IMG/VR virus record: IMGVR_UViG_3300021431_000099
Location: 1-64,000 of that record
Length of the DNA stretch: 64,000 nucleotides
Source of the DNA: a virus
Lineage: Duplodnaviria > Heunggongvirae > Uroviricota > Caudoviricetes
Strand: one strand, 5' to 3'
The translations under genes were made by a program, and so were the position numbers. The notes under the pieces were generated by a model. That model saw only the letters and a program-made list of their open reading frames with translations, was not told the origin of the DNA and searched no databases. Below, one piece after another: positions 2,824 through 59,786 of this stretch (the first letter of the stretch is position 1; each line of letters starts with the position of its first letter).

Positions 2824-2828
2824 ATAAG

Positions 2829-4194: not shown

Positions 4195-4198
4195 AAAA

Positions 4199-4270: not shown

Positions 4271-4277
4271 ATAGTCG

Positions 4278-4943: not shown

Positions 4944-4969
4944 ATGCCTCCCTCCTGCAAAAAATAAGT

Positions 4970-5062
4970 TGGCGCCCGCGGAAGGATTTGAACCCTCGCG
5001 CCGGTTTCCCGACCTCTCGGTTTTCAAGACCGATCTCTTCAGCCAAACTTGAGTACGCGGGC
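4970..5062 (-). tRNA. tRNA-Ser(UGA), class II
   Basis: Acceptor gcccgcg/cgcgggc, G73 and CCA. Anticodon arm tcggt-cttgaaa-accga. Long variable arm. T-arm gaggg-ttcaaat-ccttc. Confidence 0.85.
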
Positions 5063-5090
5063 ACGTGCCCGTTTTCACGGGCAATTACTA

Positions 5091-8864: not shown

Positions 8865-8950
8865 TTATACTCCATCCATATATGCCAGGTTCCCAGACAT
8901 TATTGGAATATATTTTACAAGGTTTTGTTCTTCAAATTTTTCTGTTATAA

Positions 8951-9937
8951 TCATATGGTGGATTGCCCCATTTCCTCAATGTGCCTAAGCCAAGCATCAA
9001 TCGTAACGGCCTCCATGGTCATGCCTTCCATAACGCTGCGCTGGCGCACCTGATTAGAAATCATCATCTTGTCTCCAATCGGTATGTTATTCCACATGTC
9101 TTTATGCTTTGCGTAATACGATGCAAAGCGGCGTTCCGTGCTGTTTCGATATTCTTGATTGTCTTGATTAAGCCATTCCGGTTTGTTCATGGTATAGTAG
9201 GCATCAAATATCATAAATGCCACAAAGAACATAGCCTTATCGTGGACTGCCCTTCGCATAAATTCATCTATGAGTGCATCGTTACTGTCAAGCATGTTTT
9301 TGTATGTTTTTAGTATGTACTTTGGGTCGTGGCGGCAAACACTATCATCGCGCCATTTCCATAAGTAGAATGGAGTTTGACAATACTTTACGTTTTGGCT
9401 TAAATTTTGGCAAAGGATATTGAAATAACTATCCTCATGGATTGTTAAATTATCATTCCAGCGAATATTTTTATCAAGTAAATATTGTCTGCGGTGAACC
9501 TTACCGTGGACAAATGTACTATCCATTTCATGGTTTATATATTCTACTGATTTTGTTTGTGGATTGCGTGTTTCTTCCACAAACATGGAAACCAAGGAAT
9601 CAAATCCAATTTCCATTTCTCTAAAAAGAATCCACAATCCACAAGCATTATAAAACATATCATCTGCATCACAGAACATTACATAGTCTGCTGTTGCGTA
9701 ATCTAAACAGGCATTGCGGGTAGCACTTACACCACGATGCGGTTCTTTATGATATTCAATTTTGAAGGGATATGAGTTTAGTAGGCTATCAGATAAATAA
9801 GTATCTGTGCCATCATTACAAATGATTGCTCCGATTTCGTTAAAATCTACGTTTTGCTGAAGAGCAATACTATCTAATAATGGTTTTATTATTTCGTCTG
9901 TTTCTTTATATTGTGGAATAAGTATCTGTAGTTTCAT
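8951..9937 (-). CDS. family 2 glycosyltransferase (GT2)
   Basis: ILIPQYKE...NDGTD...CDADDMF matches the GT2 N-terminal domain and DxD motif. Confidence 0.75.
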   Translation of the reverse strand: MKLQILIPQYKETDEIIKPLLDSIALQQNVDFNEIGAIICNDGTDTYLSDSLLNSYPFKIEYHKEPHRGVSATRNACLDYATADYVMFCDADDMFYNACGLWILFREMEIGFDSLVSMFVEETRNPQTKSVEYINHEMDSTFVHGKVHRRQYLLDKNIRWNDNLTIHEDSYFNILCQNLSQNVKYCQTPFYLWKWRDDSVCRHDPKYILKTYKNMLDSNDALIDEFMRRAVHDKAMFFVAFMIFDAYYTMNKPEWLNQDNQEYRNSTERRFASYYAKHKDMWNNIPIGDKMMISNQVRQRSVMEGMTMEAVTIDAWLRHIEEMGQSTI

Positions 9938-32984: not shown

Positions 32985-33223
32985 ACAATTACTCCAGCAC
33001 CGTTCCTAAGACGGTCAAATTCCTTTTTAGAAATCCAGCGAACAATATCAAAAGTACGCTTGGAATAGGTATTATTAATATTGATTTCCTCCGCATCTAA
33101 AACACCAATCTTTACCTTCATCGCAACGAAAGGTGTTTCATTTTCATCATACATATTGACTACCATTGTATCAAGAATAATCCAGTTGTCAATGTCATAA
33201 AAATTAGGATGCAAGTTTGTCAT
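32978..33223 (-). CDS. hypothetical protein (81 aa)
   Basis: RBS GAAAGGGGAAAGGAGA. Confidence 0.55.
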   Translation of the reverse strand: MTNLHPNFYDIDNWIILDTMVVNMYDENETPFVAMKVKIGVLDAEEININNTYSKRTFDIVRWISKKEFDRLRNGAGVIVW

Positions 33224-33271
33224 TCTCCTTTCCCCTTTCTGATAATATTATATCAGAATTTTAGATAAAAG

Positions 33272-33808
33272 TCAAGTACTTAGTCCGTAGTCAATAATAC
33301 GTAAACCAAAAGTTGGATTATAACCAATATTTGATGGATTGTTTATAATATCTTCCTCATTTAAATTTAAATAATTACATACGATAGGAATTTCTCGTAA
33401 GAAATCAGTTACTTCTTCTTCGCTAACACCAAAACGCTGTAATCGCATACCCATAATAATTAAGTTTTCAGTATTATTTAAACTATATACTTTACCTTCA
33501 TCTAGAAGTGGAGTAAAGTGAGGAAAATATAAAATGGGAAAATAATCTTCGCTCCAATCTGTTCCTACTATTGGAGCCAGTAATCTGCGCGAATCTTCTG
33601 TTGCTGTATACCAAGTAAACCACTCGTTATATTGTTGTTCTATTGCTGTTCGTAATTCTGGCTGGCTTATTCCTTGTAAATTAAGTGAACATGTATCCAA
33701 ATATTCATCAAAAGAAGGTAATTCAATATTTACAGTAGAACTATGTGGTATTACTTTTTGAATATACTCACCCGATGTACCATAGGGGAGTATAGCCCTA
33801 CTCCCCAT
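33272..33808 (-). CDS. hypothetical protein (178 aa)
   Basis: TAATG overlap with the upstream gene. Confidence 0.55.
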   Translation of the reverse strand: MGSRAILPYGTSGEYIQKVIPHSSTVNIELPSFDEYLDTCSLNLQGISQPELRTAIEQQYNEWFTWYTATEDSRRLLAPIVGTDWSEDYFPILYFPHFTPLLDEGKVYSLNNTENLIIMGMRLQRFGVSEEEVTDFLREIPIVCNYLNLNEEDIINNPSNIGYNPTFGLRIIDYGLST

Positions 33809-34266
33809 TACTTTTCCTCTGGCTCACCAATGAGTGAGGCAATCTTCTTATGGCGACGCTCGGTGTTGATTTCAAGCTTCTTTCCATAATTATTAATAGA
33901 GTCCATAGCCTGATTTAGCCAGTTATCAATAGTATTGATATATAGATTTGCGCGCTTAAAAAAGCTATTCTGAATTTTATCCTTCGCGCGAGTAAAAGCA
34001 ATTAGCTTACCAGTCTCAACAGAGAACTCATCTTCTGGATTACAAGAAGCGATACCTACAAACTTGTTAGGCATCTTTAGCTTAGGATATAGACGAGAAT
34101 GCTTAATATCCCAAATCATGCCATTATCACAATCAGGCCTAATCTTCAAGTTCTTATTAGCATACTCAAGAAATAGGTGAGAAGTATGGTCAATAATACA
34201 AACCACCTTGCGTGCGTCCTCATTAACGATAAACTGGGCCTTGTCCTTAGTAATATTAATCTTCAT
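33808..34266 (-). CDS. hypothetical protein (152 aa)
   Basis: RBS AAAAGGAGATAAT. Confidence 0.55.
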   Translation of the reverse strand: MKINITKDKAQFIVNEDARKVVCIIDHTSHLFLEYANKNLKIRPDCDNGMIWDIKHSRLYPKLKMPNKFVGIASCNPEDEFSVETGKLIAFTRAKDKIQNSFFKRANLYINTIDNWLNQAMDSINNYGKKLEINTERRHKKIASLIGEPEEK

Positions 34267-34324
34267 AATTTATTATCTCCTTTTCTTTTCTTTACTTATA
34301 TTATAATATAATTTTAATTAAAAG

Positions 34325-34786
34325 TCAATGTTTAAGCTTCCAAAGTATCACATTATAATCATTTAATTCTTCTTCAATAATGGAATAAATAATCTCCCAT
34401 TCGCCACCGCCAAGACCTGCGCCAATACCGTATGGCATATTAATTGTTATATTATTTAAATGTAATCCTTTTATTTCATGTTTAATTGCGTCACAACATT
34501 CGCGAAAGGCAGCATAGTCTGTATTACAATTGTATACGCTCCAGTTATCCTGCGCAAACATACAACAAGTCCATTTACCATCTATTTCCGCACGCATTAG
34601 TATTGTGCCAAGTAATTCATCTGCTATAAAATCATGACATAAACTTTTATATTGATTAAAAGCAAATGGATATAATTCTTTAAAAGTTTTAGCAACACCT
34701 CGTCCCATACTGCCTCTACAATTTACTTGATGACATATAATACCGGTCGGCGCCGAAAATAAATCTCCCTCTACTATTTTAATCAT
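34325..34786 (-). CDS. macro domain protein of the TARG1/OARD1/DarG type (ADP-ribosyl hydrolase)
   Basis: GDLFSAPTGIICHQVNCRGSMGRGVAKTFKELYP closely matches the TARG1 N-terminal GDLF...H.....C.MG.GIA motif. ATGA overlap with the Prs-like gene indicates translational coupling. Confidence 0.7.
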   Translation of the reverse strand: MIKIVEGDLFSAPTGIICHQVNCRGSMGRGVAKTFKELYPFAFNQYKSLCHDFIADELLGTILMRAEIDGKWTCCMFAQDNWSVYNCNTDYAAFRECCDAIKHEIKGLHLNNITINMPYGIGAGLGGGEWEIIYSIIEEELNDYNVILWKLKH

Positions 34787-35598
34787 GTAAATTCCCTCAT
34801 AACAATAATATTTGGATGATTACTGCGATAAATAGAATTTGTAGTATATACTTTTGTAATTAAATTTGGAATGTCCATTAATGATTGGCCATTAATATGC
34901 GGTTGAAGTACAGTATTTTCGCAATGAGACGCCCAAACATAAATGTTATTACAGCCCATTTCTTTTAGTTGCTTACTTGCTAGATATAGGGTACTGCCGC
35001 GAGAAATAATATCATCCACAATAATAATATCATGGCCAGCAATCATATGTTTTGCGCCCAAAACTTGAAGAGAATTTATTTTTTGTGTAGACCATTCTCT
35101 TTCCTTCACACCAAAAGTAAAATAAGTATCGCCAATAATGTTCTTATATCTCTTTTGTGCGCCTTCATCAGTGAAAAATAAGGTTGCTTCTGGATATGTA
35201 TTAAGTAAGTATTGAATTTCTCGCTCTGGCTTTTCTACTCGTACATTATTTAATAGTGCAGGAGTGACATTAGAATGTGGGTCATATATCCTTACTTGAT
35301 TAAAATGAAGTGAGTTAATAAATTCACAAAAATACTTTAAAGTAAAACATTCTTCGTTTTCTTTGCATCTATCCATTCTTGCGTGCGGACAATATGGCAT
35401 TTCAAGTATTAACCGTGACATTTCAGATTTTTCTCGTAAGTGATTTACAAGAAAAAATAAATCCGCCATTTCTTCATCGGAATCATAAAGCCAAAGAATT
35501 ACACATACGCCAACTAACGAACGAGGCGCGTATCGTAGTCGTAAAGTTCCATCATTGAATTTCTTAAACTGAACTTCTTCTCCATCTACCTTAATCAT
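34783..35598 (-). CDS. ribose-phosphate pyrophosphokinase (PRPP synthetase / Prs-family) homologue
   Basis: PYCPHARMDR (Prs PYxxYARQDR), DPHS (Prs DLHA) and the PRPP-binding loop HDIIIVDDIISRGSTL. 271 aa, shorter than canonical Prs. Confidence 0.7.
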   Translation of the reverse strand: MIKVDGEEVQFKKFNDGTLRLRYAPRSLVGVCVILWLYDSDEEMADLFFLVNHLREKSEMSRLILEMPYCPHARMDRCKENEECFTLKYFCEFINSLHFNQVRIYDPHSNVTPALLNNVRVEKPEREIQYLLNTYPEATLFFTDEGAQKRYKNIIGDTYFTFGVKEREWSTQKINSLQVLGAKHMIAGHDIIIVDDIISRGSTLYLASKQLKEMGCNNIYVWASHCENTVLQPHINGQSLMDIPNLITKVYTTNSIYRSNHPNIIVMREFT

Positions 35599-35938
35599 AT
35601 TCCCTCACAAAATCTTCAAATTCTTGCTTACGTTCTGTAAGTGTTTTTAAAGTACAAATTGTTTCATAAGCATATTCATGCTTAATGAATATAAAATACC
35701 AATCTGGCCCGCGGAAGTCACCATCTTCAATAGTAACAATACTTATACTACTAGAAAGGGCGACTTTCCAATAATTTTTTATTAATTCTAATTCTTGTTC
35801 ATTATGAATTTTTGCTACATATTTCCCTACATGACCATTCATAAAGATTTCTTTAGTTTTTAAAGTTGCATCTACTTCTTTACTCAAACGGTCAAATTCA
35901 TAAAAATCACAAGGTACGGGATAACTAAAAATATTCAT
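35591..35938 (-). CDS. hypothetical protein (about 115 aa)
   Basis: Likely start is MNIFSYP at 35938 (ATGA overlap, RBS GGGAGAAG). Confidence 0.5.
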   Translation of the reverse strand: MNIFSYPVPCDFYEFDRLSKEVDATLKTKEIFMNGHVGKYVAKIHNEQELELIKNYWKVALSSSISIVTIEDGDFRGPDWYFIFIKHEYAYETICTLKTLTERKQEFEDFVREYD

Positions 35939-36292: not shown

Positions 36293-36329
36293 ATTATTTT
36301 CTCCTTTCCTTTTTCTATATCTATTATAC

Positions 36330-36369
36330 CAAAAAATAAAAAAGAAGTCAAGAATTAATCTTGACTTCT
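36330..36369 (-). terminator. rho-independent terminator overlapping the 3' end of the gene
   Basis: Stem agaagtcaaga-attaa-tcttgacttct includes the stop codon, followed on the minus strand by uuuuuuauuuuuu. Confidence 0.6.
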
Positions 36370-36999: not shown

Positions 37000-38428
37000 A
37001 AATAATATAAGAGGCCGTATCAGGATTTGTATTCAAAGTACTTGAATCTGGACCTGATTGAACAACTGCTGGCCGTGAATTATTATTATTGTCAAAATCT
37101 CTTAATGCTATATTTACTCTAACTGAATCATTATCAGTATATAAATTAGTTTCTCCTAAACGATAATTAGGCGTTTGTATTATACCACTACTATTTTTAA
37201 AGTAATCATATACTAAATTCGTTTGGCTTTGTCTAAATCCAACTTCTGCCGCTGATGGAACCCATATTTTAAAATTATTTAAACTGCTTGTACTTGACGC
37301 ACTACCTGATTCAAATCCAAAACAAGATTTTTGTACTAATTTAATTCCCTTGTCACTTTTTAATCCAGTATCATCTGGTATACCATTAAAAATATTTTCT
37401 AATATTGTTTGAAAACTTTCGGAATTATTATAAGAATATGGTGAAATAGATGTTATAGAATTTTTATTAAAACGAGAAATTGTTTTTTCCATCCAAGTTA
37501 ATTGAACGGGTTGAGATGGATTTGAAGCTAAAACATCACGATTGCTAGAAGTACCATTTCCAGCATTTGCTGTATTAACTATTACCATTTGAGTTGGGCA
37601 TCCGTTAATTTCTAAAGTTTTATAATCACCAACTTGATACATTCCAGCCGCTATTCCTTTATAACAATTGTCAATAATTTGGGGCCAACTATCAGTAATT
37701 TCATTTTCTTCTGCTTTATCTAATTCATATTGTGATAATGAAAAGATTTTTTCATTATAAGTACTCCAATAAGTTGCTGCTTTATAAGCATCAACTAAGT
37801 TATCTGGTACATAAATTCTACCATTACCTGCGCCAATAGGATTAGTTTGAAAACCTACGTTACTGGCTAATGGTATTACAAAAGGATATAGAATTTTTAA
37901 ATACTTTAAAGAATAGCAATTAGCAAACCAATACCCATTAAGATGGGTATTGGTTGTTGCTATTTCATTATTGCCTAATGTTACTTCTCTTAACCAATAA
38001 TTATCAGTAAAAGAAGCATTAATATTTGAAGAAGATGGGCTACCATAATCAGCTTCATTTTGCATATTGGTAACTCCTTCAAAATTAGGTAAAGTTAATT
38101 CTTTAAGCTTAGTATTACTTAAAAATCTATAGCGTAAAGAATAAAATAAGGCATCATTACTTATTTGATTGGACTTAGGCTCTATTCTTTTTAATCCATT
38201 TAAATTAATAGATTTAATATTATCACCAAGTAAGATAAAAGGTGATTGTTCTAAATTTTCAAAATTAATTTCTTGAATTTCTGAATTATTAATATATAGC
38301 CCATTTAAATAAGTTTTATTTAATGTATTGGTATCAATATGAATTAAATCAGGCAAATTTAAAGAAATTAATTCATTATTAAAAAAACTTTTTAATTGAT
38401 TTTTACTATTAATTGAATTTGATATCAT
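36983..38428 (-). CDS. Asn-rich protein with N-terminal leucine-rich repeats (481 aa), probably structural or adhesin
   Basis: LNLPDLIHIDTNTLNKTYLNGLYINNSEIQEINFENL... 20-nt overlap with the giant gene. Confidence 0.55.
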   Translation of the reverse strand: MISNSINSKNQLKSFFNNELISLNLPDLIHIDTNTLNKTYLNGLYINNSEIQEINFENLEQSPFILLGDNIKSINLNGLKRIEPKSNQISNDALFYSLRYRFLSNTKLKELTLPNFEGVTNMQNEADYGSPSSSNINASFTDNYWLREVTLGNNEIATTNTHLNGYWFANCYSLKYLKILYPFVIPLASNVGFQTNPIGAGNGRIYVPDNLVDAYKAATYWSTYNEKIFSLSQYELDKAEENEITDSWPQIIDNCYKGIAAGMYQVGDYKTLEINGCPTQMVIVNTANAGNGTSSNRDVLASNPSQPVQLTWMEKTISRFNKNSITSISPYSYNNSESFQTILENIFNGIPDDTGLKSDKGIKLVQKSCFGFESGSASSTSSLNNFKIWVPSAAEVGFRQSQTNLVYDYFKNSSGIIQTPNYRLGETNLYTDNDSVRVNIALRDFDNNNNSRPAVVQSGPDSSTLNTNPDTASYIIFGFCT

Positions 38429-41400
38429 CTAAATTCGCCTCCTCAAGAATACTAGTAACACTTGTTTGTTCTGTGTTTCCATTAAATATAGTTTCTGTTC
38501 TGTTATTTACTTTAAAATTATTTGGTATACCATCGGTAGATGTAGTATTTATATATTTAGAATAAGCTGTAGAAGTAACAAAAATTTGATTTCTATAACT
38601 TGACCCTATAAAATTTTGGAAACAATCATTTTGACTTCTATTGTACATTTTTATTGGTTCATTAGTATCTGGCAATAATAATATACAATCTTGTGCATTA
38701 GAAAAAGAATTATTATATACATAAACAGTGCCAGAAGTTCTAAAGATAATAATGGCATTTCTTAAATAACTAAAAGCATATTCATTTAAAACAATATCGT
38801 TATTATTTCCTGATTTACCTAATATATAAATTTTTCTTTCGGTCGTATTTTGATTACAGAAGCTAAATTTACCCAAATTTTGTATATCAGGTAAATTAAT
38901 TTTTCTTAAATTAGTACTATGGAAAAATGCGCCTTCAGGTAAATTAGTAATTTCAGTTATTGTTTCATTAACAATTTTATTTAAGAAATAATTAGTAAAT
39001 ATATCATCTACATAATAATAAGTAATGTAAATATCCATATCGCCAGTAACCGCTAAAGGATTATTTTCATCTAAATATGGACGCCAATTCAAGAATCTAT
39101 ACATGCGGTTAGAATCTGCTTTATTTGCATCAGCAGAATAACCATCTATATAAATTGATTGATTTACTAAAGGATTGCAGTCATTTAGTTCATTTAATTT
39201 TAATAAATGAGTGTCATCATCTGTATGAATTACTGTCTTATTTGTAATGGTTTTTATTGGTTCAGATACAGGTTCTCCGTTAATATCTGTATTAAATACA
39301 CGTATTGTATATTTTGCATTATCTTTAGAATAAACTGCATAGAAGGTAGCAGGAGTTGTAGTATTAATAATAAAATTATTTACTGGCTCCCTAGTTTTAT
39401 CTTCAGGAGGTAGAGTTGTATAATCTGTACCATCTAATGTCCAGTAATCATGCCTATATAAGTAATAATCTCTTATAAATGTTGCTTGATTATCATAATA
39501 TTGAGAAACTACCTGCCCCAAATTATAATATTTATGTGCTTCTACTGTTGCTCCAATATTTTCTGTTAGCATAATATAATTTAGTTTTACTTGTGTAATT
39601 GGTCTAGCATGTAATTCCCAATCTTGAGTAATGTTATTAAAGTTTATATTTTCTTCCCAACCGCCAAAACCTTGTCTTGTATCATCACCATCATGCCATC
39701 CTAAAATTTCAGTATTATACCGCACTATATATTCTTCAGTGAATAATGAAGAGTATGGATTTGCGGTTGAACCCGCAACTAATTGAGTTAGAAGTAAATC
39801 ATTATTTAAGCCATAATATTTAATAGTATTATACTCATATCCATTATGATATACTTTTACTCGTCCTTCAAATTGTGAGTTAATATCTTCAATACTAAAA
39901 CCAGTTGGGAAATCACCAGTTAAATAAAGGGTGCCGCTTACATATGGTTTTTCTTCTTCACTTTCAAAGGAATGCATTGTTATAATTTTATCAAACACAT
40001 CTTTAAAATCATCAACAGTCATGCTCCAAACAAAATTATTTAAGTATAATCTACCACCAGAAACCATTTGACTAATAATTTTAGCAGAATCTATAGAATT
40101 AGTATGTGTTGTTTCATTAATAATACCAACATTATCAAGATATAAAGAATTTATATTTGAATAATCATTTGTACTATCATTACTATAGATTGGTACATTA
40201 GCATCAATATCCTCTTGATCGCGCTCGTTAGATGGTAATCTATTACCTATAATTAAATTGGTTAAATAAGGTTGATTTTCAATTCTAATGTAAGTTGTAG
40301 TGATAGGATATTGAACGGTAGATAAAATACCACCACTTGGCAAAATAACTGAATTCATAGCGGTTCCACTTAAATAAACTGTTTCCAAACTAATATAATT
40401 ACTTAAATCTAATTGTGCGCTATAAGCACTATAATTTCTCATATCAAAATGTCGTAATGTAGTGTTATTTTGACCCAATGTAAGATTTTTAAGTTTACTA
40501 TTTATAATAGTTGGACTTCCAAGTTTTAACGTCTCAAGTTTGTTTGCCATAGAAAAATCAGCTTCATTAATAGCTAAAGCCGCAATACCATTTAAGGTAT
40601 TTAATGCAGATGCTGGATAAATAATAGTTTCAATACCATCAATACCAGTTTGACTTTGTGTTGAGTCTTGTTCATTAGCTGTATATTGTAATGTTTGTGG
40701 AGTACCACGTAATGCTCTAACTGTATTAGGTGTGCCGTTGGCACCAATTTCAATGTTAATATAAGAATCAGCGTAAGTAGAAAGTGTTAAATTATAATTT
40801 CCTGGAGCAACACGCAAATAAATTCTATCACTATTTTTATCCACTTGGTATTTACTATTAAAGTATCTGAATCTATTAAATAACCACCATTTTCTATGTG
40901 ATTCTTTAGAGCCAAGCAACATATAAAGATATGCATTACCCCAATCTATATATTTATGAATCATATCTTCATTAAAAATTGCTGCTGACCAAACGCTCTG
41001 ATGCTGTTCAAATAAGTTTTCAACATATTCATAATTGATTCGGGACCCAAAACGTTGATACATATCAGCAATTTCTGAAGCATAAGCTTTTTCAAAGGCT
41101 TTCCAAAGTTTTGAACGTTGACCGTTAAAAACAACTGAAATACCATCAGGTTGTAAATCAAAACTTTCATAGTGGTAATCAAAACGAATACGACCATTAT
41201 TATCAATACCAATAGCCGTATCAAAATCATATGGAAAACTGAACCAACCAAAATAATTACCACTATTTGTGCCATCTTTAGTGAGTTGATTTATTCCATA
41301 AGATGAATCGCGATCGTCTGTTATTAAATAACGAGTTAAGAACATATTTTTCGCGCGATTATCAACCATTAAGAAAAATTCTGTAAAAACATAGAAGAAT

Positions 41401-44400
41401 AGCATAGCATCTAAATTAAAATATTTTGGGAAATCCTCTTTAAAAGCTGCGATACAATCGTCTGTAGCTTCTGAATCGTGTCCATTACTTGCGGTTGTTA
41501 ATTGTACAGTGTCACTTACCCATTTAACCACTTCTTTTAAACCGGCTGTCCATTTAGCTTGTTCTTCTGCACTTACACCAGTAATAGCTTTATTGCCGCT
41601 TAATGCAGTGGCCGTATCATCCTGATCGGGGAACCGCGCTTCAAAACCATCATACCAAGTTGCCCAATTATTATCAGTATAATTAAATAGAGTTAGTGGA
41701 GAATTACCATTATTTTTTACTTCCCAACTCTGGTCATATGCCCAAGGCTCATGTTCATCGCCTTCTAAACCAAAAACTTCATGAGTGCCTTTATCATTAT
41801 TAAAATTATATTTTCCTAGTAATGTATAGCGATTGGAACTTATATTTGGATCAGCATTATAATACCATACCACTACTGGTCGTCCTTCCACGCCTTGACG
41901 TATAGAAGCATCTTGTTCTTGTGGTGGAGTCTGATAATAATTTCTAGAATATTCATCATAAAGCATAGTTAAACGAGTGTTATTTGCGCTTTCAGATGAT
42001 GCAACATCAGCTTTAATACAAAAACTCCATGTTGGATAAGAAGTTGAACTCAATTTATATCCTTCTTTACTAATACCGGATTTTAATGTTTTAATTTCAT
42101 TATTATTTTCATCATATGTAATATCATAATCTGTATCGGCAGGCTTTTTAATATGTTTTATTCCATCTTGAGTAAAAGAAGAAAATTTTAATTTATAATT
42201 TTTACGATAATAATATTGAGAACTAGTACCTTGTACTTGAATTTCCATTTTTCCTTCGCCATAAATTTGACGTGCTTCAGAAAGCGCTGTACCAGTAGAA
42301 GAAAAAGCCCCAATATTATTAGAAGTTACTAATGGATCAACAAAATAAAAATCCACTGTATGTTTATTTTCACTACCTTTTTGTATAGGCATTACAGCAT
42401 TATTATTTAAATCACCAGCAGCGCTAATAACCATATATGGGGTTTCTGGTGAATTTAATTTAAACTGCTCAAATAATTCTGTATCATTAGTGTGAGTATA
42501 AGTATTTTTATTGTAAAGTGCAGTACGTACATCAATATTGCCTTCGTTAGAAATCCAGTTTTGGATTATATCTTTATAATCCAAGGGACGAGAATAGCAA
42601 CGAATAGAATAAATATCTGTAGTACATTTATCAGAGCCAATAATAATTTTACCATTTGTAAAATTATTAAAAGAAGTATAAGGCGTAGCGCCAGATAGAA
42701 TACCATTAATATAAATATACATCAATGCTGCTTCATTAGGATTGTCGCCTTGTTCTATATTGGCTATTGTTTTATTAACAACAAAAGCTATAGTCATTTT
42801 TTCTTCTTCTTTGTAATAGGCATTTAATACATTTGTTGCTGTTAGCACTTCAACATTTTGATCATCAGAAGAAATTGTCTCGGAAGTAGTCGCTACTTGG
42901 AAACGGCTGTTTTGCGGTGTTAATATAATGCCACGACTTATAGTTGAATTATTAATTTCACTTGCTTCACAACATGCGACACAAATTGTGTCATAATTTA
43001 GAACATCATTAGTTTTAAACTCAATTTCAAAAGTCATACCATCTGTAATATTGTCACCATTTCTAGTAAAATCAAATACAGAAAAGGGTATTTCAACACG
43101 CGCTTTATTGCGCAAACGCAAAAAATATTTATTGTCACTATCTTGTTGCCATCCATCAACATTTTTATAAAATAAAAAATTAGATAGCGTAGCTGAAACA
43201 TCAACTCTTTCAGAAGCTGTACTAGAATTAGTCCATATTTCTTTATCACTAGCTGTATTTGAATGTTGGTCTGCTGTTAGGTATAATTTTAAGCCGGTTG
43301 TTACAGGTGAAAAATTATATCTTTCATTTTTTAATAATACAAAAGGAATACTTGTTCTAGTATCATCTCTGCCACTTACTTGTATATTAAAATATAAAGT
43401 TTTACTCGTTTCATTTTCACCCAATGGTATATTTAATTGATAAGTATATCTATTATAATTAGTATCTACAATTTCATCACGATGAGCATAAGTAATTAAT
43501 TCATTTTCTTCTGCCGCGCTTGAATCAAGATTTGTGATACTAAATAAAACATGCGTAGTATTTTGATTTGGTGTACGTGCTAAATAATTTACAATTAAGT
43601 TATTATATTGTTCTATTTGAGTATTTGGTTTCAAATCAGTACTAATATATATTTGATTTAAAATACCACAAATAATACCATAGCGTAATACATTTGAAGA
43701 AATTACTTTGTTATTAATATTAATTGTAAACCAAGCTTCTAATAAGTGACTACCATTAGAAGGTGTACTGAAAGTTACTGTTTGTATTCTTTCTGAAGTT
43801 GCACTATAAGAAGAAATATTCTGTAATTCTGTTCCATCTATTGCTAAATGCAAGGTTTTGTTAATAGAAGAATTACCAATACTCATAGTAAATTGATAAA
43901 GTATAGTATTACCTGTTTGTATATTAGATGGATCAAAAGTAGAAATTAAAACAGGATTTATACATTCTATTGTATAATAGAAATTTTTAGAGGCAGTATC
44001 ATTACTAGTTACTACAACTTTAAAAACATTTGTTCCTAAATGGATATATTCAGAAACCTGTAATTCTAAATAATCTGGAGTAGTTCCAACTGGTGTAGAA
44101 TCTTTAGAAACAATTGAAGTCGTATATACTAAAACCTCATTATTATATAAACGTAAAGTACCAGTAATACCACTAGAATCTTCATTTGAAACACTATCTC
44201 TAGTAATCCATTTGTATTTAATGATATAGGAATCATCTTGTGTAACAGTGAGCGAAGTATCGGAACGGTCTACTTCAAATACTGAATAATAAGAATAAGT
44301 TGTCCCGCCTCCACCACCGCCTTTTGGCAAAATAATGTAAGTATTATTTAAATATTCATTATCTGTTATATCGGTTTCATTTTGTGCTATATTAGCTTGT

Positions 44401-45839
44401 GTATCACGTTTTAACACCAAATAATTATTTTCTCCTATTACTTCAGGAGAAGCATCAATATAGCTATTTGAAACACGTTCTGCCGCAGATGAAAAATCTT
44501 TTATTTGTTGATCTAATGTAGTATTAACTTCCTCTACTTCTTTTAATGTTGGATACATTGTTTGTAATAGTTCTGTCATAGAAAATGTATCCGAAACATT
44601 ATGATTGTCCTTAACTGTTAAATTATAAAAATCATTAGCTAATTCAGATAATGGTTCAGTAATTTTAGCAATATCATTAGCAGTTGGAGTTGTATTACCA
44701 TAAATAGCGGTACTTAATTGATTTACTAATGTTATTAATGAAGATGATTGCTCTTGTGAAGTTTCTCCATTCATACCCAATACAGCCTGTATTTGTGTTA
44801 TTAATGTCAATAAAGACTCATTTAATTGTGGATTTTCTAGTATTTCAGCCGCAGTTGGTTCTAAAGGACGACCTAAAGCGTTTTCAATCTTATCAATTAA
44901 AGAGCTGCTACCTGTAGCTTGAGCTGTTAATCCCAAATATTCATTTAAATCAGCAATTTGTTCTATAATTGTTTTATTAGAACCAGAACTACTATTACCA
45001 AAAACTGCATTATATATTTCACTTATGCGAGTATCAACACTTTTAACATTATCACTTAAATCCCAAGAAGAATTAGTAATATTATAGTATGTCGCACCTA
45101 AAGCTTTTTCTATTCTGCTATCTACTCCTTGTAAAGCTGTAATACTTGGAGCAATTGCTTGATTAACTGATGTGTTTAATGCAGTTAATTGAGAACTTAT
45201 CCATTCTTTTAAAGAATTATTACCCTCATTATTAACACCGCCAGAACCATAAATATTAGTAACAAGATTATTAACAACCGCTTGCGCCGCTGTTTGAGCA
45301 TTCGTCGTAGCATTAGCTGCAGCCTGTTGTGCGTCAATTTTAGCTTGATTAACATCATTCAATATATCATTTACCTGTCTATTAATACTACTAATTTGAC
45401 CTTCTACATAAGTATTAATATCATCTTGTAATTGCTCTAAATTAAAATCTTCTACTACAGACTGTAATGAAGCAATTGCCGCTGTAATAGTATCTCCATT
45501 ATAATTAGTATTACCAATTTTATTTGTTAATATAGTAATATTACCATTTATATTATTAACATTAGTTTGTAAGGTAGAAATACTCGCTTCTAACGTGGAA
45601 ACTCGACTGGAAATACCAGTATTATTATCTTCATCAAGACCAATATTATCTTCTATTGTTGTTATTTTAGTTAATGTTTCTTGTGCTAGTTTCTTTAAAT
45701 ATAATCTATTATCAAGTATACCATTTTCTATGCGATCTAATTCTCCTGCATAAATAATTTCTCCTTCCCGCCAATTTTTCGTTGTATAATCAAGAACTGG
45801 ATCATTTAAGTTCCATTCTACTTTTACTGCCATTTTCAT
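38409..45839 (-). CDS. giant multidomain structural protein (2476 aa): coiled-coil, Ig-like, LamG/ConA-like, CotH-kinase-like and LRR/BspA-like regions
   Basis: Single uninterrupted ORF. RBS AAGGAGGGATGAAA. CotH motifs RKNYKLKF ... FFLMVDNRAKNMFLTRYL ... FPYDFDTAIG at about 40.9-42.26 kb. LamG-like region at about 42.1-42.7 kb. Confidence 0.8.
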   Translation of the reverse strand: MKMAVKVEWNLNDPVLDYTTKNWREGEIIYAGELDRIENGILDNRLYLKKLAQETLTKITTIEDNIGLDEDNNTGISSRVSTLEASISTLQTNVNNINGNITILTNKIGNTNYNGDTITAAIASLQSVVEDFNLEQLQDDINTYVEGQISSINRQVNDILNDVNQAKIDAQQAAANATTNAQTAAQAVVNNLVTNIYGSGGVNNEGNNSLKEWISSQLTALNTSVNQAIAPSITALQGVDSRIEKALGATYYNITNSSWDLSDNVKSVDTRISEIYNAVFGNSSSGSNKTIIEQIADLNEYLGLTAQATGSSSLIDKIENALGRPLEPTAAEILENPQLNESLLTLITQIQAVLGMNGETSQEQSSSLITLVNQLSTAIYGNTTPTANDIAKITEPLSELANDFYNLTVKDNHNVSDTFSMTELLQTMYPTLKEVEEVNTTLDQQIKDFSSAAERVSNSYIDASPEVIGENNYLVLKRDTQANIAQNETDITDNEYLNNTYIILPKGGGGGGTTYSYYSVFEVDRSDTSLTVTQDDSYIIKYKWITRDSVSNEDSSGITGTLRLYNNEVLVYTTSIVSKDSTPVGTTPDYLELQVSEYIHLGTNVFKVVVTSNDTASKNFYYTIECINPVLISTFDPSNIQTGNTILYQFTMSIGNSSINKTLHLAIDGTELQNISSYSATSERIQTVTFSTPSNGSHLLEAWFTININNKVISSNVLRYGIICGILNQIYISTDLKPNTQIEQYNNLIVNYLARTPNQNTTHVLFSITNLDSSAAEENELITYAHRDEIVDTNYNRYTYQLNIPLGENETSKTLYFNIQVSGRDDTRTSIPFVLLKNERYNFSPVTTGLKLYLTADQHSNTASDKEIWTNSSTASERVDVSATLSNFLFYKNVDGWQQDSDNKYFLRLRNKARVEIPFSVFDFTRNGDNITDGMTFEIEFKTNDVLNYDTICVACCEASEINNSTISRGIILTPQNSRFQVATTSETISSDDQNVEVLTATNVLNAYYKEEEKMTIAFVVNKTIANIEQGDNPNEAALMYIYINGILSGATPYTSFNNFTNGKIIIGSDKCTTDIYSIRCYSRPLDYKDIIQNWISNEGNIDVRTALYNKNTYTHTNDTELFEQFKLNSPETPYMVISAAGDLNNNAVMPIQKGSENKHTVDFYFVDPLVTSNNIGAFSSTGTALSEARQIYGEGKMEIQVQGTSSQYYYRKNYKLKFSSFTQDGIKHIKKPADTDYDITYDENNNEIKTLKSGISKEGYKLSSTSYPTWSFCIKADVASSESANNTRLTMLYDEYSRNYYQTPPQEQDASIRQGVEGRPVVVWYYNADPNISSNRYTLLGKYNFNNDKGTHEVFGLEGDEHEPWAYDQSWEVKNNGNSPLTLFNYTDNNWATWYDGFEARFPDQDDTATALSGNKAITGVSAEEQAKWTAGLKEVVKWVSDTVQLTTASNGHDSEATDDCIAAFKEDFPKYFNLDAMLFFYVFTEFFLMVDNRAKNMFLTRYLITDDRDSSYGINQLTKDGTNSGNYFGWFSFPYDFDTAIGIDNNGRIRFDYHYESFDLQPDGISVVFNGQRSKLWKAFEKAYASEIADMYQRFGSRINYEYVENLFEQHQSVWSAAIFNEDMIHKYIDWGNAYLYMLLGSKESHRKWWLFNRFRYFNSKYQVDKNSDRIYLRVAPGNYNLTLSTYADSYINIEIGANGTPNTVRALRGTPQTLQYTANEQDSTQSQTGIDGIETIIYPASALNTLNGIAALAINEADFSMANKLETLKLGSPTIINSKLKNLTLGQNNTTLRHFDMRNYSAYSAQLDLSNYISLETVYLSGTAMNSVILPSGGILSTVQYPITTTYIRIENQPYLTNLIIGNRLPSNERDQEDIDANVPIYSNDSTNDYSNINSLYLDNVGIINETTHTNSIDSAKIISQMVSGGRLYLNNFVWSMTVDDFKDVFDKIITMHSFESEEEKPYVSGTLYLTGDFPTGFSIEDINSQFEGRVKVYHNGYEYNTIKYYGLNNDLLLTQLVAGSTANPYSSLFTEEYIVRYNTEILGWHDGDDTRQGFGGWEENINFNNITQDWELHARPITQVKLNYIMLTENIGATVEAHKYYNLGQVVSQYYDNQATFIRDYYLYRHDYWTLDGTDYTTLPPEDKTREPVNNFIINTTTPATFYAVYSKDNAKYTIRVFNTDINGEPVSEPIKTITNKTVIHTDDDTHLLKLNELNDCNPLVNQSIYIDGYSADANKADSNRMYRFLNWRPYLDENNPLAVTGDMDIYITYYYVDDIFTNYFLNKIVNETITEITNLPEGAFFHSTNLRKINLPDIQNLGKFSFCNQNTTERKIYILGKSGNNNDIVLNEYAFSYLRNAIIIFRTSGTVYVYNNSFSNAQDCILLLPDTNEPIKMYNRSQNDCFQNFIGSSYRNQIFVTSTAYSKYINTTSTDGIPNNFKVNNRTETIFNGNTEQTSVTSILEEANLDDIKFN

Positions 45840-48342: not shown

Positions 48343-48555
48343 CTAACAAAAAGGTAAATTATTTATTACATCTGCCTTCATTTTACTAGTCCGAAGACTA
48401 GCACCACAAAATGGGCAATTGTAAATAAGCATACGAAAATTTTGAAATTCTAACCAATAAGTATCGTCTTCATCTTTTTTAATCTTTGCTTTTATATTTC
48501 TATGTTCAGGTTGATTAAATGGAAAAAAATCTTTTCCGTTACAGAATTTACACAT
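48343..48555 (-). CDS. zinc-ribbon protein (70 aa)
   Basis: CKFCNGK ... CPFCG. Confidence 0.55.
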   Translation of the reverse strand: MCKFCNGKDFFPFNQPEHRNIKAKIKKDEDDTYWLEFQNFRMLIYNCPFCGASLRTSKMKADVINNLPFC

Positions 48556-48976
48556 TTTCTATCCTTTCTGAAGCATAACCGCTATCAGTCGTATAGTGAA
48601 TATTCTTAATACCAAGTCGCTTAATAGCGGCCATACAAGCTGGGCAAGGCCTAGCCATTCCAAGTTTTCCGTCCCTAAGTTCACGATAAACGTAGACATG
48701 AACTTTGGAAAAATCAATATCCAAATATTTTATTTTGGAAAGCGACATCATTTCAGCATGATTCTTTGAAGGCAGATATTTATTACCACATTCTTTATAA
48801 CGCCATCGGTTATATTTGGCTTGGTCAGTGTGTGTGCGGTCAGTATTAAAACCTTTTGCGAGCACGGTGCCTTTATAGGATATTACCGCACCTATACGGG
48901 CCCGTCCACAACCACTATAATCCGATTTAAAACTACATTCTCGCGCCAACCTAAACAAATGGCTATCACTTTTCAA
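48548..48976 (-). CDS. dCMP / cytidine-deaminase-fold zinc deaminase
   Basis: HAEMMSL ... PCPACMAAI (H[AC]E ... PCxxC). Confidence 0.75.
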   Translation of the reverse strand: MKSDSHLFRLARECSFKSDYSGCGRARIGAVISYKGTVLAKGFNTDRTHTDQAKYNRWRYKECGNKYLPSKNHAEMMSLSKIKYLDIDFSKVHVYVYRELRDGKLGMARPCPACMAAIKRLGIKNIHYTTDSGYASERIENV

Positions 48977-49030: not shown

Positions 49031-49852
49031 TCAAATATTGACTAACTCATTTACATATTCTGGATGCTCTTGGAAAGAAGGAATATGCATTGCTACTTCC
49101 CAGCGCTTACGAGGGACTTTAATTTTAGTATCATCCGGCCGCGTGAAGGTTTCTACACATTCATATTTCCGTACGCAAATACCTTCACGATAGAAGGAAG
49201 GAATAAAGTTCCAATCCACCTTATGTTTTTCTGCCATCATTTGCTTGCGCTCTTCCGTAGACTTACCTTCAAGCTCCTTATCAGAAAACAATGTGCGCGC
49301 AACCATACTTACAGCATTTCGCTGGCAGTCTTTTCTTCTCCACAAAAAATAGTTGTTGACTTCTTCTTTGGGAAGTATAAATGCACGGCAATCAAACACA
49401 GCTAATTTACTTTCCTGCGCCTTATAGTGTGCTTCAATCCATTCTGGAATGATATAATCATTTTCCTCGCAATCTTCAACAAAGTCTTTAATGGCAAGGT
49501 CATGTGCCTTATAGAAAAATACAGAAGCCATACTCGCGGCGACACTACACATTTTTTGTAGATTTTTACCAAACCAAGACTCTGTTTCAAGAGTATCATA
49601 GTCTGTTAGAAGAATAGAGATTTCATCACTCTGAACGTATGCCATCTTTGCACCAGAGATATTCTGACAAAGCTGCTTTGCCGTGTCCCACATAGCTTCC
49701 ATAAATACGCGGTCAAAAGGCTTATTAAAGCTCTTTGTATAACTATGGAAAGCCTTACCGTCTAGCCGCAAAATACAAGGCATCCTCCTTGGAAGATAAA
49801 AACGATTTACATTCTCATACGCCTTAAAACGGTCACCCATCTTATCAATCAT
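49031..49852 (-). CDS. Thg1-like protein (tRNA-His guanylyltransferase family; 3'-5' nucleotidyltransferase)
   Basis: KAYENVNRFYLP...ILRLDGKAFHSYTKSFNKPFD...AYVQSDEISILL matches the Thg1/TLP motifs RLDGRxFH and SDE(Y/I)S. Confidence 0.75.
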   Translation of the reverse strand: MIDKMGDRFKAYENVNRFYLPRRMPCILRLDGKAFHSYTKSFNKPFDRVFMEAMWDTAKQLCQNISGAKMAYVQSDEISILLTDYDTLETESWFGKNLQKMCSVAASMASVFFYKAHDLAIKDFVEDCEENDYIIPEWIEAHYKAQESKLAVFDCRAFILPKEEVNNYFLWRRKDCQRNAVSMVARTLFSDKELEGKSTEERKQMMAEKHKVDWNFIPSFYREGICVRKYECVETFTRPDDTKIKVPRKRWEVAMHIPSFQEHPEYVNELVNI

Positions 49853-52260: not shown

Positions 52261-53142
52261 TCAATGGCTCCTTTCATCTGCGTCATGTAGAATAAGAATC
52301 TTCTTCCATAGTTCTTCACCTAAGCGCTTTTCCCATACAGAAGAAGCATTGGTGTCATAAGGCTTCATATGATAACAAACCAGCTGAATGACTTCAATCG
52401 GTAGCTCCATATTCATAGCAAGGAAAGCACCATAACTATCATGAGAATAGTAATGTGCTATGCCATTTTCATCATAGCTACGAGTATAGGCTTTTCCAAT
52501 ATCATGTGCGCCGGCCGCAGCATACATATTTACCTGTTCATCATTAGACAAACTATCAACATTTACCTTATTAATACAATCAAAAAGATGGTTAAATAAA
52601 GTAAGAGTATGATGTGGGTTATCCTGCGAGCCTGCTGCGCGCACATCTGCCCACATATTTTCTGCGAACTTTTTTACATCATATTCTGCGGGAGTAACAA
52701 TTTCAATTACATCCCATCCCTCGTTATAAACGGGCATCTGGAATTGCTTGATCTGTCGCTCAAATAACCAATCAGGAACCTGACGCTCGCGCTTCTTATT
52801 CCATTCCTTACAAATGGAAAGAGGAGTATTAAATACAACGACACGACACTTAACATCAGGGAAACGGCGCTTAATTTGATTAAGAGTATGAATGCGATGC
52901 TTCATAGCAAGATTGGTAGCACAGTAAAAGACATTGATATTATGAGAAAGAGCAGACTTAGTGCGCGCGAACATTTCACTAAACACCTTATCTGGATTCT
53001 GCTGGTCATTAGCATCTCCCCATAGCTCTCTCCTTACCATATCGGAATCTGCTACTATATCAGTAGCAATATTATGCTGCTCATAGCACCAATGGCTCTT
53101 ACCGCTGCCGCTAATACCTACCGTCATAACAAATTCAGTCAT
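52261..53142 (-). CDS. polynucleotide 5'-kinase (P-loop) fused to an HD-domain phosphohydrolase (Pnkp-like RNA repair enzyme)
   Basis: MTVGISGSGKSHW (Walker A, T4 Pnk-like N-terminus). C-terminal H..H...HD (HHTLTLFNH...GAHDIGK). Confidence 0.7.
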   Translation of the reverse strand: MTEFVMTVGISGSGKSHWCYEQHNIATDIVADSDMVRRELWGDANDQQNPDKVFSEMFARTKSALSHNINVFYCATNLAMKHRIHTLNQIKRRFPDVKCRVVVFNTPLSICKEWNKKRERQVPDWLFERQIKQFQMPVYNEGWDVIEIVTPAEYDVKKFAENMWADVRAAGSQDNPHHTLTLFNHLFDCINKVNVDSLSNDEQVNMYAAAGAHDIGKAYTRSYDENGIAHYYSHDSYGAFLAMNMELPIEVIQLVCYHMKPYDTNASSVWEKRLGEELWKKILILHDADERSH

Positions 53143-58369: not shown

Positions 58370-58666
58370 TTAATTCTCCATTTTTGCGCCACAGTTTGGG
58401 CAATAATTTCTGTCTGTTCCTGCATTAACCCAGTGAAAGCATTCACTACATTGATATCTTCTATTTCCGACGAAATTAAAGTCAATCCATAGTCCATGCA
58501 CCACCGGCGCGACATCTACGGCGGGGATAGATTCAATAACTTTGATTACGCTTTCAGGGCTTACGTCGCCATAATATCGGTCAACACGTTCATCATCAAA
58601 TGCTGCAATCGCCGCCGCCCTTGAAATTAAATCATCTTTTGCTCTATTCATCTTCCTGTGCTCCAA
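58370..58666 (-). CDS. zinc-ribbon protein (98 aa)
   Basis: CSEC ... CPNCG. Confidence 0.5.
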   Translation of the reverse strand: MEHRKMNRAKDDLISRAAAIAAFDDERVDRYYGDVSPESVIKVIESIPAVDVAPVVHGLWIDFNFVGNRRYQCSECFHWVNAGTDRNYCPNCGAKMEN

Positions 58667-59786
58667 TCTTGGTCATTTCCATTTCTGCCATAATGTAAGA
58701 GGCCAGAGTGCGCGTACGCATATTCATCAGATAGTCGCTGCCATCTTTTACCTTTTCATCCAGTCGCGCATACAGATAAGAACGCACGATAGGCATGTAA
58801 GTGTTAGCATACATAGCAAAATCACGACGTTCTCCCATTGCTCCAACAACACTATTAACTACCTTAAAGGCAGTATCACACACTTCAATGTAATGGCGAA
58901 CGCGCTGAATCACATCATTAGTGAAGTCCTTAAACTCAGGATAGTAAGCAACAAAATCATCAAGAGTTCCCTGCTGATACATTTCTACTACGCGCAGAAC
59001 AGTCAGCGGGCCATTACCACGCATCTTATGAAGGGCAAGATATTCGTCGCCCTTGATCTTAATGCGGTGGAACTCCGCGTCGCACACAACGTAACCCTCT
59101 TCATCATCACCCATTTCGTGAGCGGCCGCAACACACTCGGAAAGAGAATGATGGGGGTATACTTCGGGGTAGAGTAGGCCATCAAGTTCTAGACCTTCGC
59201 TGTCTTCAGTATCATCCAAAATGTTGCGTCGGCCAAGATACCAAAGATTGATACCTTCATAGCGTACAACGATACGATTGAAGGGAGAAGTAAGCTCAAA
59301 CATATAGGTGTAGTCACTATCAAGATGCTTGAAGAAATTAGGAATACGATCAATTACCTTCTGAACCAAATCACCATAGGTGGTGTCGCCGCACTCCGCC
59401 TTGAATGCATCAATGGTTCCATTGGTAGAAATTACCCAACCATCATAGTCCCACCAAATCTTGATAAGAGAACCATCTACCTTCTGCTGAACAGACGCAG
59501 TATCCCAATCAATAGCGTGAACCGCAGAATACTGCTCACCATAGTTAAAAAACTTATCAAAAGGATGGCAAACACAAACCCAGTGGCCTTCGTCATTCTG
59601 ACGGAAGATAGAACCACGGGCTTCCTGGACTTCGCGCAAACCCATATCAGACATAATCTGATTATACTTTAACAGAAAATACTGGATACCGTCAATTTCA
59701 TCAGAACGAATATCCAAATAGTAAGGTTCAGCCGCGAGCAGAGTCTTCCAATCGGGGTGGGTATTCATGAAATTCACCAATTCCAT
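58644..59786 (-). CDS. RNA ligase, T4 Rnl1-like family
   Basis: Ligase motif I QKVDGSL (KxDG lysine), motif IV EEGYVV and motif V RIKIKGDEY. Confidence 0.7.
   Translation of the reverse strand: MELVNFMNTHPDWKTLLAAEPYYLDIRSDEIDGIQYFLLKYNQIMSDMGLREVQEARGSIFRQNDEGHWVCVCHPFDKFFNYGEQYSAVHAIDWDTASVQQKVDGSLIKIWWDYDGWVISTNGTIDAFKAECGDTTYGDLVQKVIDRIPNFFKHLDSDYTYMFELTSPFNRIVVRYEGINLWYLGRRNILDDTEDSEGLELDGLLYPEVYPHHSLSECVAAAHEMGDDEEGYVVCDAEFHRIKIKGDEYLALHKMRGNGPLTVLRVVEMYQQGTLDDFVAYYPEFKDFTNDVIQRVRHYIEVCDTAFKVVNSVVGAMGERRDFAMYANTYMPIVRSYLYARLDEKVKDGSDYLMNMRTRTLASYIMAEMEMTKIGAQEDE

Follow-up and report, generated by a model that had tools for sequence, protein, structure and literature searches.

A predicted Adps and macro-domain gene pair from a large phage belongs to an Adps clade with no Namat gene found nearby

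Two overlapping genes on the minus strand

The stretch of DNA analyzed here, referred to throughout as the window, covers positions 1 to 64,000 of the IMG/VR virus record IMGVR_UViG_3300021431_000099 and is part of a large phage genome in which nearly all sizeable open reading frames (ORFs) lie on the minus strand. Our subject is a pair of adjoining genes encoding a protein related to the phosphoribosyl pyrophosphate (PRPP) synthetase Prs and a macro-domain protein. An initial annotation, made from the letters alone, had placed both ORFs and quoted several motifs, and an ORF check of the window found both on the minus strand at exactly those positions (Table 1), together with every motif: PYCPHARMDR occupies residues 68-77 and DIIIVDDIISRGSTL residues 190-204 of the Prs-like protein, and GDLFSAPTGIICHQVNCRGSMGRGVAKTFKELYP spans residues 7-40 of the macro protein. 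The plus strand reads TCAT at the junction, which gives ATGA on the coding strand, where the TGA stop of the first gene and the ATG start of the second share 4 nt. This overlap is in line with the translational coupling that had been proposed for the two genes.

Both genes resemble the front end of NARP1-AP, a published phage pathway of NAD+ reconstitution, which bears out the earlier view that the module concerns ADP-ribose or NAD counter-defense. We give slightly better than even chances to the reading that the pair, judged by sequence, is the ADP-ribose-processing front end of such a pathway.

The Prs-like protein

The Prs-like ORF matches PHROG 619, annotated as ribose-phosphate pyrophosphokinase (E=1.3e-53), and its Pfam matches are sub-threshold. 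It falls under the cut-off of every NCBIfam PRPP-synthetase model: the best, TIGR01251, gives 78.8 bits against a cut-off of 113, the equivalog models give 30-70 bits against cut-offs of 296-518, and the archaeal PRPP synthetase (PRPS) model gives 71 bits against 296. The alignment to TIGR01251 covers positions 26-274 of 309, so the protein is truncated at both ends relative to housekeeping Prs; the initial annotation had described this for the N-terminus. Its closest annotated relatives come from a human gut phage contig (MT835544; 36% identical to the window protein) and from Bacillus Bastille-like phages (Megatron; 34% identical), both of them Adps with an adjoining Namat gene.

We aligned the Adps proteins of the window, Vibrio phage ICP1, Gary, Megatron and the gut phage L002 with E. 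coli Prs, whose sequence was confirmed by PDB alignment at residues 62-251. Residues F14, R74, H108, D144, K165, D195 and D196 of the window protein correspond to ICP1 F18, R87, H121, D161, K185, D212 and D213. The ADP-ribose-binding and transfer-catalyzing residues have been named in a 2026 paper on the ICP1 Adps structure, which also gives loss of the C-terminal alpha11-alpha12 module as the defining signature of the Adps family (PMC13586617). This module is absent from the window protein in our alignment. The protein carries the hairpin K-E-R-E-W-x-T-Q and, after the pyrophosphate (PP) loop, the aromatic residue Y205, both matching Adps and not PRPS. The segment YDPHSNVTPALLN is common to all aligned Adps and stands where E. 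coli Prs has VDLHAEQIQGFF; the motifs of housekeeping class I PRPS, DLHAxQIQGFF and DDMIDTGGT, are not found, the window reading YDPHSNVTPALLN and DDIISRGST.

A neighbor-joining tree nests the window protein among the radiating Namat-linked Adps and well apart from a Clostridium PRPS and E. coli Prs; these two bacterial PRPS were the outgroups, and archaeal class III PRPS, which has a window-like PP loop (DDIISTGGT), was left out of the tree. The gene is under strong purifying selection (ratio of nonsynonymous to synonymous substitution rates, dN/dS, 0.04-0.21), and the catalytic residues are invariant in 18 members of its clade. A housekeeping PRPS identity, which would have spoken against the initial annotation, was rejected on curated cut-offs, motifs and tree position. 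As that annotation had proposed, we are dealing with a phage Adps: by its sequence the Prs homologue belongs to the clade of predicted ADP-ribose pyrophosphokinases and not to the housekeeping PRPP synthetases.

The macro-domain protein

The second ORF matches Pfam Macro (24.0 bits, threshold 22) and PHROG 335, annotated as phosphatase (E=1.7e-35). A hidden Markov model (HMM) of Adpp, the macro-domain protein of NARP1-AP, was built from 11 published sequences (Table S1 of the Osterman 2026 preprint) and gives the window protein 97.4 bits (E=5e-31). The NCBIfam DarG model gives it 57.9 bits (E=1e-15) against a cut-off of 250, with the match confined to the N-terminal 139 of 338 model positions. 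In a phmmer search against solved structures, DarG macrodomains came out at E=1.7e-8 (5M3I) and 3e-6, Poa1p at 3.6e-6 and TARG1 at 3e-3. We further obtained an AlphaFold2 model (predicted local distance difference test score, pLDDT, 96) and compared it with solved structures by Foldseek. The best TM-score was that of the yeast protein Poa1p (6LFR, 0.86, root-mean-square deviation 2.4 A), followed by DarG (0.81) and TARG1 (0.75), and the DarG macrodomain 5M3E was among the top matches (E=4.9e-12). Because such a fold comparison cannot separate DarG from Poa1p, we judged function on residues.

When phmmer aligns the window protein to 5M31 and 5M3I, its Q79 falls on K80 of T. aquaticus DarG, the equivalent of TARG1 K84, and this Gln is invariant among 45 macro homologues. 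At the position of Asp125, which together with Lys84 is catalytic in TARG1, the window protein has Gly, within the loop G-A-G-L-G-G-G-E-W. H19, nearly invariant among the 45 homologues, corresponds to Poa1p H23 and Adpp H24, a position occupied by Asn in DarG, and S26 corresponds to Poa1p S30. The lysine is a catalytic residue common to DarG and TARG1 (PMC8883491). The macro gene, too, is under strong purifying selection (dN/dS 0.05-0.24).

The assignment to a TARG1/OARD1/DarG subgroup therefore stands at the level of the fold, where the modeled protein is a member of the TARG1/DarG/Poa1p group, and gives way at the level of function. Because Gln replaces the catalytic Lys of DarG and TARG1 and the His of Adpp and Poa1p is kept, the predicted activity is that of Adpp, an ADPR-1''-phosphate phosphatase (ADPR, ADP-ribose), and not that of DarG. 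DarG itself was rejected on its catalytic Lys being Gln, on a length of 153 aa with no C-terminal DarT-binding domain and on the sub-cut-off model score; the removal of ADP-ribose from DNA that had been suggested is not supported. TARG1/OARD1 was rejected on the Gln at the Lys position and the Gly at the Asp position. As for a DarT toxin, the adjoining ORFs have no significant Pfam match and DarT is not among the Pfam families listed for the window.

Comparison with NARP1-AP and related systems

The RES-domain defense aRES cleaves NAD+ into nicotinamide and ADPR-1''-phosphate, which Adps cannot use as a substrate; about 15% of NARP1 operons are of the NARP1-AP form, with a Poa1p-like macro protein, Adpp, that turns ADPR-1''-phosphate into ADPR, and in the Vibrio phage Gary the gene order is Adps-Adpp-Namat (Osterman et al., January 2026, bioRxiv 10.64898/2026.01.28.702374). 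The mutations H24A in Adpp and K192A in Adps abolish activity, and the H24A primers are listed in Table S4 of that preprint, H24 being the residue mutated to inactivate NARP1-AP. A pairing of Adps with a macro protein, held by the initial annotation to be undescribed, has thus already been published.

As in Gary, a Poa1p-like macro gene comes directly after the Adps gene of the window, the stop and start codons overlapping, and both the essential His (H24 in Gary, H19 here) and the catalytic Lys of Adps (K192 in Gary, K165 here) are kept. The pair has three of the features by which NARP1-AP is recognized: an Adps-clade homologue, a macro gene at most two genes away and the Poa1p-like His. It differs from NARP1-AP in having no Namat alongside or elsewhere in the 64-kb window, and its macro protein shares only ~28% identity with Gary Adpp. 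Among the entries of Table S1 of the preprint that were considered, the NARP1-AP phages have Gram-negative hosts (Vibrio, Pseudomonas, Acinetobacter, Pseudoalteromonas), and no Bacillus, Clostridium or Enterococcus phage figures there. Unlike these, the window phage probably infects a Gram-positive rumen or gut anaerobe. Among bacterial phyla, aRES is most frequent in Bacillota, occurring in 10.4% of their genomes; homologues of the aRES inhibitor aRad1 were not found in the window.

With NARP1 proper (SPbetaL1, Bas63, ICP1 NrsAB, FADO), the window protein shares the Adps fold, the catalytic residues and the truncated C-terminus; that system is defined by Adps and Namat in proximity, a feature that the window locus lacks. 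Poa1p (PDB 6LFQ-6LFU) offers the best superposition and has the equivalents of His23 and Ser30 kept, yet it is only ~21-23% identical to the window protein, the equivalent of its F152 is not conserved, and its role, in a eukaryote, is clearance of a tRNA-splicing by-product. DarG and TARG1 belong to the same macro subgroup by fold (TM 0.75-0.82) and have a similar N-terminal motif, GD..(x)NC..MG.G(I/V)A; the window protein differs from them in having no catalytic Lys, no TARG1 Asp125, no DarG C-terminal domain and no DarT partner. The window proteins are not DarG, TARG1 or housekeeping PRPS, because for each of these a defining feature was looked for and is absent.

From homology and conserved catalytic residues, we infer the following predicted activities. 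The Adpp-type macro protein would convert ADPR-1''-phosphate, the product of RES-domain NAD+ phosphorylases such as aRES, into ADP-ribose. The Adps-type protein would then transfer the beta,gamma-pyrophosphate of ATP to the 1''-OH of ADP-ribose, giving ADP-ribose pyrophosphate (ADPR-PP) and AMP. In the described pathway, Namat would take the last step by joining nicotinamide and ADPR-PP into NAD+; here it would have to come from elsewhere, be it a distant phage gene, a host enzyme or another partner, because there is no Namat in the window or beside Adps in the loci of its clade. A cyclic-phosphate form of ADPR-PP, ADPR-cP, has also been observed (Osterman 2024). Speculatively, opening of that ring would give ADPR-1''-P, and Adpp might then also recycle decay products of Adps.

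Namat near the pair and in relatives

From ENA/Logan/JGI assemblies, IMG/VR and GTDB genomes we gathered the loci of Adps relatives, each with flanks of 10 kb, and scanned them with Namat, macro, PncA, PnuC, NadE, NadD and PncB queries. Loci with an Adps at least 45% identical to that of the window were taken as the window clade, which overlaps narrowly, at 45-47%, with a sister clade. The window clade is represented here by 20 loci from ~17 distinct contigs, 19 of them informative; clustered at 90% identity, its Adps form ~115 clusters, and its phages have genomes of 135-185 kb.

Three kinds of observation weigh against a NARP1-AP assignment. The first is Namat itself. In the 64-kb window, tblastn with two proteins of the Nampt-like Namat family (PF04095/PF18127) returned no match, and nicotinate phosphoribosyltransferase (NAPRTase) is absent among the 25 Pfam families listed for 85 minus-strand ORFs; nine further single-member families all have E > 2e-5, and are therefore too weak for a genuine Namat. 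This agrees with the initial annotation, which had seen neither Namat nor NadV. Queries with the Megatron, L002, Gary and ICP1 Namat were likewise negative in the window and its extensions, namely 8.3 kb past one end and 3.2 kb past the other in the same phage and ~10 kb further per side in close relatives; the flanks so covered, taken from this phage or nearly identical ones, are put at ~26 kb. PncB, NadD and NadE, as alternative partners, were not found in the window and extensions either. Across the window clade, Namat was found within 10 kb of Adps in 0/19 informative loci, and so was NadE. Exact 40-mers from the ends of the extension contigs (L009, L007) had no match in IMG/VR, and near-identical DNA was not found in cultured or deposited phages.

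The second concerns the active site: the adenine-stacking F92 and the PP-loop D216 of ICP1 Adps are Lys and Ser in the window protein. The Namat-linked Adps of Megatron and L002 also depart from ICP1 at these two positions, L002 keeping an aromatic Tyr at F92. The third is that the two genes do not always occur together. At the same backbone position, Adps stands alone in L012, L057 and L065 and the macro gene alone in L277 and L278, while both are present in the window, L011, L013, L049 and L055. The variable slot has a conserved 152-aa gene on its downstream side and, among the closest relatives, a small 115-aa gene on its upstream side. Because each gene occurs singly in relatives, the two are not obligately co-dependent; each can therefore be useful without the other, which weakens a strict two-gene dependency. 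Such independent presence and absence is typical of accessory counter-defense genes and fits enzymes acting on a host metabolite pool. One of the macro-only loci, L277, also encodes an RVT_1 reverse transcriptase, separated from the macro gene by ~8 kb, a hint of a diversity-generating retroelement.

Other genes cluster with Adps in the window clade. A macro gene is present in 6 loci, a PncA-like isochorismatase-family gene directly upstream in 7, and PnuC in 2 loci that represent one contig retrieved from two sources, its nicotinamide-riboside transporter scoring above the TIGR01528 cut-off. Examples of these isochorismatase-family (nicotinamidase-like) and PnuC genes lie at L012:7927-8439, L055:9421-9945 and L056:7823-8542 and 8622-9146. 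The window itself has no PncA-like gene and no PnuC.

The sister clade holds the closest Namat-linked relatives (Adps 38-47% and macro 41-49% identical to the window's). Its loci carry the cluster PncA-Adps-Namat-(macro)-NadE in 65/66 cases in IMG/VR, one with a Namat fragment, and in 37/38 informative cases in GTDB, the macro gene being present in about a third of clusters. These are the same kind of large phage, with contigs of up to ~378 kb, the GTDB ones mostly binned with Lachnospiraceae metagenome-assembled genomes (MAGs); unlike them, the window clade has no Namat or NadE and has PncA only in some members. In each sister-clade locus (L067-L133 from IMG/VR and L134-L174 from GTDB MAG contigs), the cluster lies at ~9.4-13.5 kb along the locus. 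A nicotinamidase and an NAD synthetase adjoining NARP1 suggest an added deamidated branch, and we found no description of this cluster. A Preiss-Handler set without Adps, PncA-NadE-(NadD)-PncB, occurs in other large rumen and gut phage contigs, namely L024:14045-17194 (= L177) and L178-L196. In L191, a Prs-like gene (31% identity) adjoins NadE-PncB-PncA, a Prs-family/PncB pairing. The IMG/VR contigs with L024-type PncB do not coincide with window-clade contigs.

The neighbor-joining tree groups the Namat-less loci in a single clade that sits within the Namat-linked Adps. Linkage to Namat is therefore ancestral and was lost or broken in the window clade.

Alternative explanations

We next consider where the last step could come from. 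The best-surviving alternative, to which we give somewhat less than an even chance, is that these are the same enzymes of an ordinary, complete NARP1-AP whose Namat, and perhaps NadE, lies elsewhere in a genome of 135-185 kb, outside the ~90 kb examined. Genomes of the group reach 184.8 kb, which leaves about half unseen, and the strong purifying selection on Adps implies some consumer of ADPR-PP. Phage NAD genes can also be dispersed, the Bacillus phages FADO and SPbetaL8 having Poa1p-like macro genes with no Adps or Namat within 6 kb. However, Namat is at most 10 genes away for 97% of Adps genes (Osterman 2024) and adjacent in ~97% of sister-clade loci. Moreover, PncA-like, PnuC and macro genes still cluster at Adps in the window clade, where Namat and NadE are both missing, and no Namat was found in 113 loci of 20 kb from related large phages, anchored on Band_7 and on an exonuclease-like protein. 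As a source of the last step, a distal phage Namat thus stands, in our subjective weighing, close to but short of even.

Because the Namat step is absent from the neighborhood throughout the clade, the alternative NAD-reconstitution route raised in the initial annotation stays in play. We consider a last step completed by the host or by a novel partner to be possible but, in our estimate, rather less than probable. In its specific form, a monophyletic Adps clade from 135-185-kb phages of rumen and gut Clostridia would work without any phage Namat, ADPR-PP being consumed by a host enzyme or an unrecognized phage partner, which would make this a Namat-independent way of rebuilding NAD+ and which we hold to be unlikely. 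A candidate consumer would be the host NAPRTase PncB, which with nicotinate from a phage nicotinamidase would give deamido-NAD, and in hosts that deploy RES-type NADases Adpp would supply ADPR. That the Prs-like enzyme has another role, such as PRPP supply or ADPR removal, appears to us fairly unlikely.

It is also conceivable, but improbable, that the adjacency is incidental, the locus being a hotspot of accessory counter-defense genes in which the macro protein is independent of Adps. Its possible separate roles include removal of ADP-ribose or O-acetyl-ADP-ribose from other targets, or the processing of Appr-1''-p from RNA repair. The independent coming and going of the two genes between conserved backbone genes is consistent with this, as are the stand-alone Poa1p-like macro genes common in Bacillus phages and the RNA ligase, Thg1-like gene, kinase/HD protein and 13 tRNA genes of the window. 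On the other side, the 4-nt ATGA junction is kept in L011, L013 and L049, and a 1-nt overlap is found in L055, a relative with 47% Adps identity, and between Adps and Adpp of Gary. T4-type Rnl1 ligation leaves no 2'-phosphate, and no Tpt1/KptA is among the Pfam families listed for the window.

Another reading, which we rate as quite improbable, is that the Prs-like protein works as, or has reverted to, a PRPP synthetase feeding the host Preiss-Handler salvage route through PncB, with the macro protein a general ADP-ribose hydrolase. The conserved partner in the clade is indeed a PncA-like isochorismatase-family gene and not Namat, and the phage nicotinamidase and PnuC of relatives would help the host PncB route. 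In the same direction point the full PncA-NadE-NadD-PncB sets of related phages, the adjoining genes in L191 and the best solved-structure match, an archaeal class III PRPS with a similar DDIISTGGT loop. Nevertheless, the protein is nested in Adps, far from the two bacterial PRPS outgroups included, it scores far under the archaeal PRPS cut-off, its K-E-R-E-W-x-T-Q hairpin and Y205 match Adps, and purified SPbetaL1 Adps made no PRPP (Osterman 2024). Finally, a DarG-like glycohydrolase clearing DarT marks from DNA, with Adps recycling the released ADP-ribose, is highly improbable: although DarG macrodomains and the NCBIfam DarG model are among the matches of the macro protein, an invariant Gln replaces the catalytic Lys, the DarG Asn is a His of the Adpp and Poa1p kind, and the Adpp HMM scores higher than a DarG match far under its cut-off.

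Gene neighborhood and genome context

Upstream of the pair, the stop codon of the 115-aa ORF overlaps the Adps start by 8 nt. This ORF has no Pfam, PHROG or NCBIfam match and turned up only in L011-L013 and L049/L050, loci in which Adps shares 77-98% identity with the window protein. The site 36323..36351 is the likely start of a unit of 67 aa - 115 aa - Adps - macro, as suggested by its intergenic position on the coding strand, promoter-like sites in the window overall being no more numerous than expected from shuffled sequence. The site 34300..34328 is the likely start of the next unit, with the 152-aa and 178-aa backbone genes. One of the near-consensus promoter-like sites overlaps a terminator-like hairpin with a 15-bp stem (36373-36339, minus strand).

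Table 1. Features of the Adps and macro-domain locus (positions in the window)
Feature	Position	Strand	Description	Predicted role
Adps-type PRPS homologue	34783..35598	-	271 aa, upstream gene of the pair	predicted ADP-ribose pyrophosphokinase
Macro-domain protein, Adpp/Poa1p-like	34325..34786	-	153 aa	predicted ADP-ribose-1''-phosphate phosphatase
ATGA stop/start overlap, Adps to macro	34783..34786	-	read from the sequence	
Small upstream ORF	35591..35938	-	115 aa in gene calls of public assemblies; longest ORF to 35992	
Promoter-like site TTGACT-17-TATAAT with TG	36323..36351	-	11/12 consensus matches, intergenic gap	likely start of unit
Promoter-like site, directly past macro stop codon	34300..34328	-	11/12 consensus matches	likely start of next unit
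Promoter-like site TTGACT-17-TATAAT	33247..33275	-	11/12 consensus matches, intergenic gap	
Promoter-like site, near-consensus TTGACT/TTGACA-16/17-TATAAT	33165..33192	-	intergenic gap, coding strand	
152-aa backbone gene	33808-34266	-	conserved downstream neighbor with or without Adps or macro gene	

The window has a GC content of 27-42% and, by Pfam, encodes tail and baseplate proteins, several endolysins, a Thg1-like enzyme, an RNA ligase and a kinase/HD protein. Its 13 tRNA genes lie at 1453-5062 and include two that are unusually long, Ile-tat (90 nt) and Ser-tga (93 nt). A 268-aa ORF with a TTG start (4278-5084, minus strand) overlaps the predicted tRNA-Ser (4970-5062) and adjoins tRNA-His (4199-4269); at any rate at that length, it is unlikely to be a real gene. 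Along with the tRNA genes, a tRNA-related set comprises a Thg1-like tRNA-His guanylyltransferase, an Rnl1-type RNA ligase, an AAA_33+HD kinase/phosphatase and a dCMP deaminase (48548-48976, 49031-49852, 52261-53142 and 58644-59786, all on the minus strand).

A giant ORF of 2476 aa (38409-45839, minus strand) has no Pfam match on record and is conserved in relatives, where it measures 2376-2475 aa. After it come two proteins of 481 aa and 204 aa with faint CBM_5_12 matches. The window also encodes three Gp10_C baseplate paralogues, a BspA-type LRR_5 protein, two Mtd_N (major tropism determinant N-terminal) proteins and the S component of an energy-coupling factor (ECF)-type riboflavin transporter, which would be an auxiliary metabolic gene.

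Discussion

NAD+ depletion is among the commonest anti-phage strategies of bacteria, and NARP1 and NARP1-AP are the main known metabolic counter-measures. What stands out here is a Namat-less and selectively maintained clade of Adps, a real and testable oddity, in phages where the Adps and macro genes behave as accessory modules that are gained and lost independently. The comparison with relatives further exposes a five-gene version, PncA-Adps-Namat-Adpp-NadE, that is widespread and seems not to have been described. Should Namat prove to be just distal in the window clade, NARP1-AP extends to large phages of Gram-positive gut and rumen anaerobes. If the clade is truly without Namat, ADPR-PP has a second consumer, and the definition of NARP1 as Adps plus Namat is too narrow.

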